A stretch of DNA of 64,000 nucleotides from Euryarchaeota archaeon UBA130 (GTDB taxonomy: Archaea; Thermoplasmatota; Poseidoniia; Poseidoniales; Thalassarchaeaceae). The translations under genes were made by a program, and so were the position numbers. Of the stretch, positions 56,886 through 60,063 are shown in pieces (position 1 is the stretch's first letter; the number at the start of each line of letters is the position of its first letter). The DNA is taken from assembly GCA_002505775.1 (NCBI GenBank), contig DAVY01000020.1:4860-68859 (forward strand), read 5' to 3'. The notes under the pieces are model-generated. The model saw only the letters and a program-made list of their open reading frames with translations. It ran no database searches and was not told where the DNA came from.

Positions 56886-58553
56886 TCAAAGTTCGGTAGC
56901 TGAGCCTTCCTCTTCACTCTGTCCTGAGGGAGAAACCTCAGTGTCGAGAGTAGCCCCGCTAGCCAGAATCTTTCTGATTGTAGTTGGTGATGTCAGTGTG
57001 TATGATTCAACAGAAATCGATGAAGTTGAGGAAGTACTTGCGGTTTGGACCGCCCTTCCCCTGAATTGACCGCTTATGGCGTTGGTGCAGTGGAATATGG
57101 CACCAACCACGGTCCCGTAGAACATTACTGACCCGACCTTCCTGAGTTCGTCATTTATTGAGGCACCCTGCTCGGCCATTGACTCCGTGAGAGCCATATC
57201 AGTGAAGTCAGACATCATGGTTATCAATAGGCCGAGGAAGGCCCCCGCGGTCATCATCCAATAGGCCCACCTAGACCTGTTCTCCGATAATTGATGCCTA
57301 CCACTGGCTCTTGGGAGGATACTCAGAGCCGCACCGAGGGAAAGTGGAATCATTACAAGCCAAATCGCCATTAAATCGAGAGACTGCGAAATTCCAGTTA
57401 GTTCGTTGACACCTCCGAGAGCGTCTGTCTGCACAAAAAGAGCTCCGATAGCAACCGGGACAAGCATCCATGATCCGAGATTCAGTTCCGCGATACCGGG
57501 TGCATCAGGATTCTCGACAAAGGCATCTGAACCCCTGAGAGTCACCAGCATGTTAGCGCTGAATGCGATAATTGGCATTGCGGCTAGGGCCATCAGGAAT
57601 GAGCCAGATATAACGTCCCTCGACGTGGCATCGAGTTCGCTTGAGGACAAGGAGAACAAGTCGGTTACCATCGACGAGTCCGTTGATCCCATGGGATTGA
57701 TAGTGACCAATGCTCCGAATAGTGTGAAAGCCACCAGGGATTTTGACCACAATGGATTCCCTGAACCAACAGATGCCGAGTATAGGGAGACTCCAGCCAG
57801 ACCACAGAAAAAGAAGGTCCCTCCTGACAAGTGGAAGAGTAGCCATTGGCCTGTTCCCTCCTCATATGCGCCACTCACGAACACTGCTAGAATCGCGGCA
57901 ATATTCCCAATGACTGCAAACAATATCAGCCATCCAGGGAATGGGATATCCTTGGTTGCCTCGGAAACAGTGATTATCATGTTGATTACAATGGCTATCG
58001 AGGCCAGGGAAAGCAATAGATTTGCGACGGGTAGTATTGTAATTCCAAGAATGACGCTATTCTGCGAGCCTATGAACATCAGCAATACGGACAGTGTCCA
58101 AAGAAGGGATACCAACGTAGCATTGGACTCGCTAGCCAAGTTTGTTCCGGATAGCTTTGGTAGGGCGTGCAGAGATGCGCCGATAACCATCATCCCGATA
58201 GCTCCAAATAAAGCAGTCAATCTACCTGCGTAAATAAACTCAGATGACTTTGGATGATATCCCCATGACTCAAAGCTGTGTAGAGCGGTGGGGTCATGTG
58301 TCAGCCAGAGCCCTACGAAGGTGAATGTTGAGGCCGCGAATGTCCAAACGAAACCGTGGATTATCCATGCAGTTGTTGCAGAGCCGGGGCGTCCACTGAC
58401 GAAATCTATTGCCGGCCCGAGGGCCTTCTCGAGCATGAACATGCTGAGGCTCTTGGATACGTCACTGAATATCCACAGGCCTCTCTTTATCAGTATGAAG
58501 AATATAGCCAAGATGAGCCAAAAGACTGCTAAAGTGGAAATTATGACATCCAT
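56886..58553 (-). CDS. Polytopic membrane protein (about 12 or more TM), apparent heme-copper-oxidase subunit-I-like fold lacking most His ligands
   Basis: Segments '[10 protein letters not shown]', '[24 protein letters not shown]', '[18 protein letters not shown]', '[18 protein letters not shown]' and '[15 protein letters not shown]' line up with remembered CcoN motifs ([76 protein letters not shown]). Ser/Thr-rich C-terminal tail. Confidence 0.45.
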   Translation of the reverse strand: [555 protein letters not shown]

Positions 58554-58561
58554 GATATCAC

Positions 58562-58933
58562 CTACTCGCTAGTAGCCTCCGCAAGCATGGTCGCGATTAT
58601 GGAAAATGCACCAAAAATAACACCGAGGAGGAAGAACCAGATCCCAGAATCGAATACTCCCTCAAACATAGGAAGTACTTCGGAGACCACAGGCATGTCT
58701 CTGCCAGGGAATAAGATGCCGTAGAGTACAAGGAAAGATAGCATAGTTACGAATCCTAGCACCAATACTATTCCAGAGGAAGCTGGCTCTTTCTCACCTT
58801 GAATAAACACATCAACAGAACTCGGTACATCGGCAGACATAGACACACACCTCGCAAACGCGACAGAAGCGGACCGAACCAACAGAGATTGCCCCTTAAG
58901 CATTGGGCGGGGTGTAATGTCCCCAGCACTCAA
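58562..58933 (-). CDS. Small two-TM membrane protein
   Basis: Hydrophobic helices 'IVLVLGFVTMLSFLVLYGILF' and 'IWFFLLGVIFGAFSIIATML'. TTG start overlaps the upstream stop (TTGA). ATG 58903 or 58840 are alternatives. Confidence 0.45.
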   Translation of the reverse strand: MSAGDITPRPMLKGQSLLVRSASVAFARCVSMSADVPSSVDVFIQGEKEPASSGIVLVLGFVTMLSFLVLYGILFPGRDMPVVSEVLPMFEGVFDSGIWFFLLGVIFGAFSIIATMLAEATSE

Positions 58934-60063
58934 GGAGCACGCATGCGGTCCAACGGGTTCCCCCTCCTGTGGATGCCTGCGCCCATAGGGGCAGGAAGAG
59001 TAGCGTCACTCTGAATCTCGGCGTGCCATGCCTTCTTGCACTCGCATTCTAACCCTGTGAATTCCCTTAAGTCCCCGGAAACGGAGTACCTCTCAATTGC
59101 TGCCACGACTTCTGAATCGCACGAGCCACAGTTGTGAGATCCCCTGGTCTTCCCCCCTGCAGTTGGATGTACGATTACCCTGCAATCGGTATTGGATACA
59201 TCAGCATGCGTCCTTACGATCATTTCTACCAATGACCAAAGCCACGGAGGGCGATACTCCCTGTTTCTGAAGAGCCTGTCCACGATTGTACCCCTTTGAA
59301 TGTTCATTGGATTTATTGACACTTCGTCAGATATCTTGGATACTTCCATTACCCACTTTGAAGTATGTTCTAAGGCGTCTCCCTCGGACATGAATGGTGG
59401 CTTGAAAAGGAGATATGTCTTTACTCTTAATGAGTTTTCTCTAAGTAATTCCACGGCCCTGTGCCATTGTCTGATTGAGAAGCCTTTGTTAGCATGAAAT
59501 CTCAGAACGGTGTTGTCATATGCCTCCAAACCTATTGCTACAGTACAACCCGGGTGCCTCTCGGCGACCCATGCCAATTTCTCTTCCGTACACATTTGTG
59601 CCTGAGCTTCGACGACTAGGTGTAGTCCCATCTCGTAGGTCTCCCTCAACACATGTTCTTGCCACTCAGGAGGGTTCTCTCTATCCTCAAAGAATGTTCC
59701 AGATGTGTATACCTTGACCATTTTACATCCCTTGAAATTCTCAGTTTTCCTCTTGGCTTCTTCCCACTGAGAGAACATATCCTCAGATGTAACATCGTCC
59801 CTGACATCATTGAAGTAGCCACAAAATGTGCAACCTGACTTCCACCACCATGCACAACCCTTGGTTCTTAGGATTACCGTGACGGCTGTGCAGGGAGATC
59901 CGTCGGGGAGATTCTCCGGTGTCTTGTATACCGTAACTGGTTTGGAAGCGTCCCATGACTCTCGTGAGGCTACTGATTCAGGAGTATTCTCAGGAGCTTT
60001 TACGAGATGGTGGATTTTGACTGGCTTCTCACCATCGCCCATCAGTCCGCAAGACTGAGTCAT
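58930..60063 (-). CDS. Radical SAM protein of the archaeal TIGR01210/COG1244 type (archaeosine-synthesis RaSEA-like)
   Basis: 'VILRTKGCAWWWKSGCTFCGY' matches the remembered RTxGCxxxxxxGCxxCGY cluster of this family. C-terminal Cys-rich tail 'HNCGSCDSE...CECKKAWH'. Confidence 0.55.
   Translation of the reverse strand: MTQSCGLMGDGEKPVKIHHLVKAPENTPESVASRESWDASKPVTVYKTPENLPDGSPCTAVTVILRTKGCAWWWKSGCTFCGYFNDVRDDVTSEDMFSQWEEAKRKTENFKGCKMVKVYTSGTFFEDRENPPEWQEHVLRETYEMGLHLVVEAQAQMCTEEKLAWVAERHPGCTVAIGLEAYDNTVLRFHANKGFSIRQWHRAVELLRENSLRVKTYLLFKPPFMSEGDALEHTSKWVMEVSKISDEVSINPMNIQRGTIVDRLFRNREYRPPWLWSLVEMIVRTHADVSNTDCRVIVHPTAGGKTRGSHNCGSCDSEVVAAIERYSVSGDLREFTGLECECKKAWHAEIQSDATLPAPMGAGIHRRGNPLDRMRAP

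Follow-up and report, generated by a model that had tools for sequence, protein, structure and literature searches.

What becomes of an enzyme subunit whose gene is kept after the residues that hold its metals have been lost? Few residues in bioenergetics are conserved as strictly as the six histidines of subunit I of the heme-copper oxidoreductases (HCOs). The question is raised by a gene in a 64,000-nucleotide (nt) stretch of DNA from Euryarchaeota archaeon UBA130 (contig DAVY01000020.1); the whole of this stretch is referred to as the window hereafter. The gene lies on the minus strand at 58553..56886, and its product of 555 amino acids (aa) is referred to as HCOL. An earlier examination of the letters alone (the sequence-only reading) had described this product as an HCO-like membrane protein stripped of its metal ligands, and the open reading frame (ORF) that it had pointed out was confirmed in the ORF list. 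We conclude that the homology of HCOL to HCO subunit I is real, if very distant, and that HCOL stands nearest to the C-family (cbb3 CcoN) and to cNOR. The HCOL family is a conserved, ligand-less HCO branch specific to Marine Group II (MGII) archaea, that is, a branch of pseudo-enzymes.

Homology of HCOL to HCO subunit I

Direct sequence searches are nearly blind to this kinship, so that it becomes visible only when profiles are compared with profiles or folds with folds. The Pfam COX1 profile gave the window HCOL 18.6 bits, below the cut-off of 34.8, and placed residues 395–459 on profile positions 49–113. This match, being sub-threshold and off register, was discarded as evidence; it probably reflects the internal pseudo-symmetry of the fold. 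A search of NCBIfam with HCOL returned no match, and neither did searches of the PDB sequences with HCOL and with a profile of its close family.

Relatives of HCOL were nevertheless found in large protein collections. Among 5.8 billion proteins, 407 relatives were detected; the best 120 stem from MGII archaea and bear either no annotation or the label 'hypothetical'. When 1.84 billion representative proteins were searched by HMMER with the family profile, only 115 proteins were obtained, including full-length distant members of 526–857 aa. At the weak end of this list stand genuine C-type HCOs, P0227 (COX1 E = 1e-79) and P0230 (1e-72; its cluster is named cbb3-type subunit I). Two distant HCOL members, P0128 and P0131, exceed the COX1 gathering score across nearly the full profile, and a COX1 match at E ≤ 0.01 is seen in 5 of the 27 family members that were aligned.

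This alignment of 27 members was compared by hhalign with an alignment of CcoN from P. stutzeri (3mk7_A) and two C-type HCOs. The probability was 99.7–99.9%, with E values of 7e-27 (local) and 8.7e-30 (global) over 408–428 columns. The AlphaFold2 (AF2) model made from the 27 sequences reached a pLDDT of 82.6 and a pTM of 0.85; it replaced an earlier model made from an alignment of 18 sequences from MGIIb only (pLDDT 62.8). When this model was compared with the PDB by Foldseek, all of the 50 best matches were HCO subunit I: cbb3 CcoN came first (E = 7e-12 to 2.5e-9, TM score 0.72–0.78), followed by NorB of cNOR, by ba3, and by aa3, bo3 and qNOR. Membership in the HCO subunit I superfamily was thus found both at the level of the fold, as a core of 12 transmembrane helices, and at the level of the family profile.

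The claim of the sequence-only reading that HCOL is a catalytically dead HCO scaffold of the cbb3/NorB type is supported by the sequence profiles, the structure prediction, the fold search, and the ligand mapping and selection analysis described below. Four of the five motif alignments with CcoN on which that claim had been built were reproduced by hhalign. They include QWLLFH/QWWYGH, in which H241 corresponds to CcoN H207, and LPRASGR/VPKVFGR, in which P414 and G418 correspond to P367 and G371; the alignments of the NPLWSKSL motif and of P327, N334 and T338 with CcoN P282, N289 and T293 were also reproduced.

HCOL had further been regarded as an extra paralogue beside a conventional A-type oxidase. 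A canonical A-type subunit I (CoxI) is indeed encoded at 2295–4616 (COX1 E = 4.6e-140), but HCOL is not a recent paralogue of it. The hhalign probability between the HCOL family and this resident CoxI was 1.6%, against 99.9% for the C-family; a recent origin from the resident oxidase was rejected on this ground, and HCOL is placed in the C-family/NOR branch. The two proteins belong to the same superfamily by transitivity, with no direct similarity detected by hhalign.

Loss of the metal ligands

The positions of the CcoN ligands (P. stutzeri numbering) were mapped onto HCOL by hhalign. In helix II, H60 (haem b) is set opposite G110. The sequence-only reading had matched GRLTALF with GRLRPLH, six residues out of this register, and had assigned the lost haem histidine to F116; the assignment was wrong, while the loss itself stands, as no His is found in either register. 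Both CuB ligands of helix VII, H257 and H258, fall on D292 and S293. In helix X, H345 (haem b3) falls in a gap, with no His anywhere in HCOL residues 386–419, and H347 (haem b) falls on L394, a column that holds His in 5 of the 27 members. The absence of the helix-VII HH pair and of the helix-X HxH pair was thereby confirmed. The cross-linked Y251 corresponds to N286, where the family has N, S, T, P or V and never Y.

The remaining CuB ligand, H207, corresponds to H241, which is the sole surviving ligand His of the window HCOL, as had been proposed. It is kept in only 9 of the 27 members; the others have K, R, Q and further residues there. No His column is conserved across the 27 members, the best one being His in 17 of them at a non-ligand site. 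Neither the bis-His ligation of a low-spin haem, nor the proximal His of a high-spin haem, nor the three His of CuB/FeB was found in HCOL. Since the family has lost all six ligand His and the cross-linked Tyr, HCOL cannot be an O2 or NO reductase of a known kind.

A clear contrast is seen at non-ligand positions. Residues kept in both CcoN and the HCOL family are (CcoN/HCOL) W24/W70, T148/T195, W162/W208, W203/W237, P233/P267, S236/S270, P282/P327, N289/N334, T293/T338, F316/F373, P367/P414, G371/G418 and W386/W432. Their retention supports the alignment register outside the ligand sites and indicates that the scaffold was retained while the chemistry was not.

Selection and distribution

The dN/dS of HCOL was 0.03–0.05 in comparisons with relatives at 91% and 83% identity, and the same values were obtained for the three genes that flank it (described below). 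Intact, full-length HCOL was found in 67 GTDB species-level loci, whose titles read Poseidoniales, Thalassarchaeaceae, MGII or an unresolved archaeal rank; the peptide patterns used in this contig scan were biased to MGIIb, so that the scan does not show absence outside MGIIb. Long forms of HCOL occur in Poseidoniaceae (MGIIa, a membership that rests on source names), one of them on a 1.92-Mb contig. HCOL is thus under strong purifying selection, and all named members are Poseidoniales.

Within its block of four genes, HCOL evolves fastest. Identities within MGIIb are 48–55% for HCOL and 65–75% for its neighbours; to MGIIa, they are 29% and 55–67%, respectively. Still, 17 columns are invariant in the 27 members, whose identity goes down to 23%. 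The faster evolution fits a relaxed constraint after the loss of catalysis, and does not fit decay.

Topology and the cytoplasmic tail

The HCOL model has 13 transmembrane helices: an extra N-terminal helix (TM0) and the 12-helix HCO core (I–XII), after which a C-terminal tail follows. The sum of Lys and Arg per protein is 6.5 in the predicted cytoplasmic loops and 0.5 in the outer loops. This bias gives HCOL the topology of CcoN, with a cytoplasmic C-terminal tail.

Conservation in the 27-member alignment is found at several places. One is the segment between TM0 and helix I, for which AF2 predicts short helices: F39 is invariant, and K43, D50 and G57 are conserved in at least 90%. Another is the C-terminal motif, whose R527, G533, D537 and T538 are found without change in all 27 members; no Pfam match was found in this region. 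Another is the polar pair of helix VIII: N334 is found in all 27 members and T338 in 24, and both align with residues invariant in the three C-family sequences. There are also conserved extracellular loops, e.g., WLxHDPxAL, and in the close MGIIb set H86, H92 and H488 do not vary. Within the transmembrane helices, no charged residue is conserved across the whole family.

The tail is longer in some lineages. In MGIIa, it runs on into a pair of EF-hands and a SAP domain (11 of the 27 members; P0131, P0134, P0137, P0138 and P0145 are among them), and P0145 carries an extra coiled-coil-like stretch of about 150 aa ahead of the SAP domain. SAP without the EF-hand occurs in P0128 and P0129 (some Thalassarchaeaceae, basal MGIIb), and the clade of the window has neither domain. 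We infer that the MGIIb version in the window dropped the add-on domains and kept the core tail motif.

The small partner and its promoter-like element

In every locus examined, including those of MGIIa, a small gene (81–105 aa) lies about 10 nt upstream of HCOL. The small proteins are mutually homologous and share the motifs QGxxEPxxS and YPGxDxPVxSxVLPxFxGVxDSGIWFF. That of the window has 92 aa and two hydrophobic helices. As it contains neither Cys nor His, it is not a cytochrome c or CuA subunit; it matched nothing in Pfam or NCBIfam.

The true start of the small gene is the ATG at 58840, which leaves a spacer of 89 nt after the RaSEA gene. The sequence-only reading had seen a TTGA overlap of these two genes. 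This overlap is not real: it arose from extending the small ORF to an upstream TTG, and the extension is interrupted by stop codons in relatives. The gaps of 8 nt between the small gene and HCOL and of 32 nt between HCOL and the GTPase gene had been given correctly.

At 58909..58885, about 57 nt ahead of the ATG of the small gene, this spacer carries the motif CGCCCAATGCTTAAGGGGCAATCTC. In the RaSEA/small-gene spacers of the loci L001–L080, the motif is nearly invariant across MGIIb in spite of saturated synonymous sites, and it occurs once in the window; in MGIIa, GAATGTTTATCAT occupies its position. In several relatives, a hairpin (GAGGGAC..GTCCCTC) directly follows the RaSEA stop codon, ahead of the motif. 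An Rfam search of the gene cluster matched no family. The motif CGCCCAATGCTTAAGGGGCAATCTC is probably a BRE/TATA-like promoter of the unit made of the small gene and HCOL, and it may also be the site of a regulator.

No conserved promoter-like motif was found in the 32-nt HCOL/GTPase spacer of the window. As a separate observation, some MGIIb loci (L025, L029, L059, L063 and L065) share the motif ACCGTCAA(C/G)TTGAGGG in this spacer; it is absent from the spacer of the window.

Organization of the four-gene block

The coordinates of the features are collected in Table 1. On the minus strand, four co-directional genes follow one another in the order RaSEA, small membrane protein, HCOL and YchF-related GTPase.

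Table 1 Features of the HCOL locus and the comparator oxidase gene in the window
Feature	Coordinates	Strand	Evidence
HCOL gene, ligand-less HCO subunit-I-like protein, 555 aa	56886..58553	(-)	ORF, profile alignment, AF2, Foldseek, dN/dS
H241 codon; retained equivalent of an HCO ligand (CcoN H207, CuB ligand, helix VI)	57831..57833	(-)	hhalign mapping
Helix VIII polar pair N334-x3-T338 (= CcoN N289/T293)	57540..57554	(-)	Family alignment
Cytoplasmic C-terminal motif, family consensus GxTTIRxLLxxGAxLDTE	56937..56993	(-)	Conservation in 27 members
Cytoplasmic segment between TM0 and helix I	58383..58439	(-)	Conservation in 27 members; short helices in AF2
Gene of the two-transmembrane-helix partner, 92 aa, 8 nt upstream of HCOL	58562..58840	(-)	Homologous small genes at other loci
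Non-coding motif CGCCCAATGCTTAAGGGGCAATCTC, BRE/TATA-like and a probable promoter, in the RaSEA/small-gene spacer	58885..58909	(-)	Spacer alignment
RaSEA, archaeosine-biosynthesis radical SAM protein, upstream neighbour	58930..60063	(-)	TIGR01210
YchF-related GTPase with TGS domain, downstream neighbour, 32 nt after HCOL	55573..56853	(-)	NF007171 and Pfam
Canonical A-type oxidase subunit I, comparator outside the module	2295..4616	(-)	Pfam COX1, E = 4.6e-140

The outer two genes were assigned to known families. RaSEA, a tRNA-modification gene, belongs to the equivalog TIGR01210 (E = 3.1e-86; 289.5 bits against a cut-off of 212.15), and the GTPase to NF007171 (E = 1.6e-130; 435.6 bits against a cut-off of 387), with the Pfam domains MMR_HSR1, YGR210-like_G4 and TGS. 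Because these equivalog and subfamily assignments in NCBIfam mark both as housekeeping genes, the small protein is regarded as the only dedicated partner of HCOL.

The sequence-only reading had proposed a tight operon of four genes and had made its conservation in relatives a point on which the proposal could fail. The survey of relatives found the order RaSEA, small gene, HCOL and GTPase, on one strand, in every locus with enough flank, and thus universally in the Poseidoniales; the genes beyond the block vary between loci. The word tight, however, does not apply to the block as a whole: RaSEA is set off by the spacer with the promoter-like motif, and in the loci L010 and L011 HCOL and the GTPase gene are separated by a saccharopine-dehydrogenase gene on the opposite strand. 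A tight pairing is seen only between the small protein and HCOL.

Other kinds of partner were also sought. No adjacent gene for a redox partner (CcoO, CcoP or NorC cytochrome c, or a CuA subunit II) was found in the loci examined. HCOL lies 52 kb from the cox genes in the window, and it was never beside cox genes in 81 loci. The PADLOC models of defence systems matched none of the four block proteins at E ≤ 0.01, and membership in a defence system was rejected on this result.

With regard to the GTPase gene, one 90%-identity cluster (cluster 10, P0151) contains 660-aa EF-hand/HCOL proteins together with YchF-related GTPases of 400–430 aa, which suggests a fused or read-through HCOL–GTPase gene call in some Poseidoniaceae assemblies. 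Just past the GTPase gene lies the ribosomal protein cluster L11-L1-L10-L12. In the window, two ORFs without a Pfam match (54380–54823 and 54902–55567, plus strand) separate the L12 gene from the GTPase gene; in the loci L001–L003, the L12 gene directly follows the GTPase gene, and the two-ORF stretch at 54380–55567 is a variable insertion.

What HCOL may do

That HCOL is a ligand-less, selected homologue of HCO subunit I with a dedicated small partner is very probable. As for its role, our best guess is a non-redox membrane module that acts through its cytoplasmic face. The explanation as a whole, in which a lineage-specific pseudo-oxidase and its partner serve as a non-redox membrane platform, is given a probability of roughly 0.55. 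The more specific proposal that the platform couples to a cytoplasmic partner or signal is built from sequence features, and we offer it as tentative, at less than even odds.

According to this proposal, HCOL and the 92-aa protein would form a non-redox membrane complex on the old oxidase scaffold. The pair would apparently be transcribed from its own promoter-like element, with the gene of a universal YchF-type GTPase following. Selection would keep the cytoplasmic face, namely, the segment before helix I, the loops II–III, VI–VII and X–XI, and the tail TTIRxLLxxGAxLDTE; it would also keep the Asn/Thr pair of helix VIII, perhaps as the remnant of a polar path. The complex might then couple an event at or in the membrane to a partner or signal in the cytoplasm, such as Ca2+ or a nucleic acid or protein bound by SAP, and the event itself could be the passage of ions or protons through the vacated cofactor pores or a remnant channel. 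A coupling role seems the most likely one because the tail is extended by an EF-hand pair and SAP in MGIIa and by SAP alone in some basal MGIIb.

A bolder version of the proposal, which we consider rather doubtful, is that an oxidase or NO-reductase subunit was converted throughout the order into a cofactor-free device that, with its dedicated two-helix partner, links the membrane to Ca2+ signalling and to nucleic-acid or protein binding, the link running through the EF-hand and SAP of an ancestral MGIIa form. Such a device might possibly be a Ca2+-responsive channel, or a membrane tether for the chromosome or the translation machinery.

Several points weigh against the platform explanation. 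The window HCOL has neither EF-hand nor SAP, so that arguments from those domains are indirect. The residues that HCOL has in common with real CcoN may reflect only a constraint on the folding of the scaffold rather than a new function. Helices IX–X are gapped in the alignment, so that the mapping of H345 and H347 is the least certain. Finally, Met, Lys, Tyr, Asp or Glu might conceivably hold a cofactor in place of His.

The coupling platform is ranked slightly above two simpler roles, each of which we consider unlikely. One is that of an ion or proton channel or transporter, using the three HCO pores or a remnant of the C-family K-path, with Ca2+ gating by the EF-hand in MGIIa; a conduit, or else a sensor, had also been suggested by the sequence-only reading. 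The near-invariant N334 and T338 speak for it, as they align with CcoN N289 and T293, which we take to be residues of the K(C)-channel (N293/T297 in V. cholerae; confirmation was sought in open-access literature and not found), and so does the EF-hand pair fused to the cytoplasmic tail in MGIIa. However, the other positions that presumably line the C-family proton path, CcoN Y223, S240, Y251 and Y317, are unconserved (L257, V274, N286 and V374 in HCOL), the transmembrane helices lack any family-wide conserved charge, and HCOL shows no similarity to any transporter family in Pfam, NCBIfam or Foldseek searches.

The other is that of a pure membrane anchor for a cytoplasmic module, made of the conserved tail and, in MGIIa, of the EF-hand and SAP domains as well, that recruits DNA or RNA, or the neighbouring ribosome-associated YchF-type GTPase. 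An anchor would account for the invariance of the C-terminal motif in a tail that the Lys and Arg bias places in the cytoplasm, for the SAP and Rho_N-like domains at the C-terminus of 11 of the 27 members, and for the GTPase gene that always adjoins, in surroundings related to translation (the L11-L1-L10-L12 cluster and RaSEA). Nevertheless, 13 helices kept at a dN/dS of about 0.04, together with conserved extracellular loops, exceed what a simple anchor needs. Moreover, RaSEA and the GTPase are housekeeping genes found throughout the archaea, the inserted gene in L010/L011 uncouples the GTPase from HCOL, and the clade of the window has lost the SAP and EF-hand domains.

Redox chemistry is very unlikely. 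HCOL would then be an enzyme with unconventional ligation, or else would assist the resident A-type oxidase as an accessory or assembly subunit. Such a role could be argued from gNOR, in which one ligand is replaced (His to Asp) and which is thought to be active (PMC11214002), from H241 in the window clade and the invariant H86, H92 and H488 of the close MGIIb set, and from the A-type oxidase encoded in the same genome. None of these His is family-wide, however; the partner lacks both Cys and His, and neither a cytochrome c gene nor a cupredoxin gene stands beside HCOL; and the distance from the cox genes, which are never adjacent in 81 loci, and the lack of detectable similarity to A-type CoxI do not suit a subunit of that oxidase. 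The last idea, that HCOL is a functionless relic in decay or a mis-called ORF, could appeal only to its rank as the fastest-evolving gene of the block and is refuted by the dN/dS of 0.03–0.05, the intact copies in 67 of 67 species-level loci and in MGIIa, the 17 invariant columns and the confident AF2 model.

Comparison with known families

HCOL and CcoN have in common the 12-helix core and the cytoplasmic C-terminus, in addition to the residues listed above. The differences are as follows. HCOL has none of the haem and CuB ligands and no cross-linked Tyr, except for the non-conserved H241; it adds TM0 and the conserved cytoplasmic tail motif; and its partner is a 92-aa hairpin without cofactors, while CcoN has the cytochrome c subunits CcoO and CcoP. 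HCOL is also archaeal (Poseidoniales), while the C-family enzymes are, to our knowledge, essentially bacterial.

NorB of cNOR and qNOR share their branch of the superfamily with HCOL, and cNOR provided the second-best structural matches (4xyd_A, E = 9e-8; 3o0r_B, E = 1e-6). In the nitric oxide reductases (NORs), all six His are present together with an additional Glu that serves FeB (PMC11214002), while the HCOL family keeps neither the six His nor this Glu. The closest parallel in the departure from the canonical active-site His is gNOR, described by Murali et al. (2024): one His is replaced by Asp, the enzyme is still proposed to be catalytic, and it was called the first such case (PMC11214002). 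The HCOL family has gone further and lost the ligands of all three metal centres.

The sequence-only reading knew of no described family of this kind, and a literature search limited to open-access texts likewise found no description of the HCOL family. Meheust et al. (2022) reported Poseidoniales-specific families with Ca-binding domains, and a halobacterial family, fam02696, that is unannotated, has distant HMM–HMM homology to HCO subunit I and is co-localised with type-C/NorB genes (PMC9258230). The HCOL family was not found in the text or the supplement of that paper. It differs from fam02696, as compared by the published description, in that the MGII family is never beside type-C/NorB genes. 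In IMG, a few HCOL members are labelled 'cbb3-type cytochrome oxidase subunit 1'; this label is misleading.

Significance

MGII archaea are among the most abundant archaea of the surface ocean. Automatic annotation of HCOL as cbb3 would wrongly credit them with a high-affinity oxidase in reconstructions of low-oxygen metabolism. HCOL, under strong purifying selection, was found at all Poseidoniales loci examined, those of MGIIa as well as those of MGIIb, which means that an HCO scaffold can be retained for a use other than redox chemistry. A recent survey of the superfamily held the replacement of one His in gNOR to be unprecedented (PMC11214002); the HCOL family has lost all six.

HCOL also provides a natural 'apo' fold in which the scaffold alone (proton paths, pores and assembly) can be studied. 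It is a conserved, lineage-specific membrane module in an uncultured group, and the 92-aa partner, the tail motif, and the EF-hand and SAP domains are handles by which it may be approached. If the bolder version given above were true, the HCO superfamily would have gained its first branch of functional pseudo-enzymes.

Other features of the window

The resident A-type cluster (1189–5377, minus strand) is itself unusual. Its CoxI has 773 aa, with an N-terminal extension of 232 aa that has no Pfam match. The putative subunit II at 4628–5377 gave only a faint COX2 match (E = 0.1), and a 369-aa ORF in the cluster has a COX3 match confined to its last 67 residues.

On the other side of the HCOL block, a gene for an ATG22-like MFS transporter of 618 aa (60108–61964, plus strand) is divergent from RaSEA, the two being 45 nt apart. 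Its Pfam match is split into two stretches with a long acidic insert between them, and the gene stands beside RaSEA in some lineages only. Finally, the GC content is 0.55–0.59 at positions 18000–30000, as compared with about 0.50 in the rest of the window.

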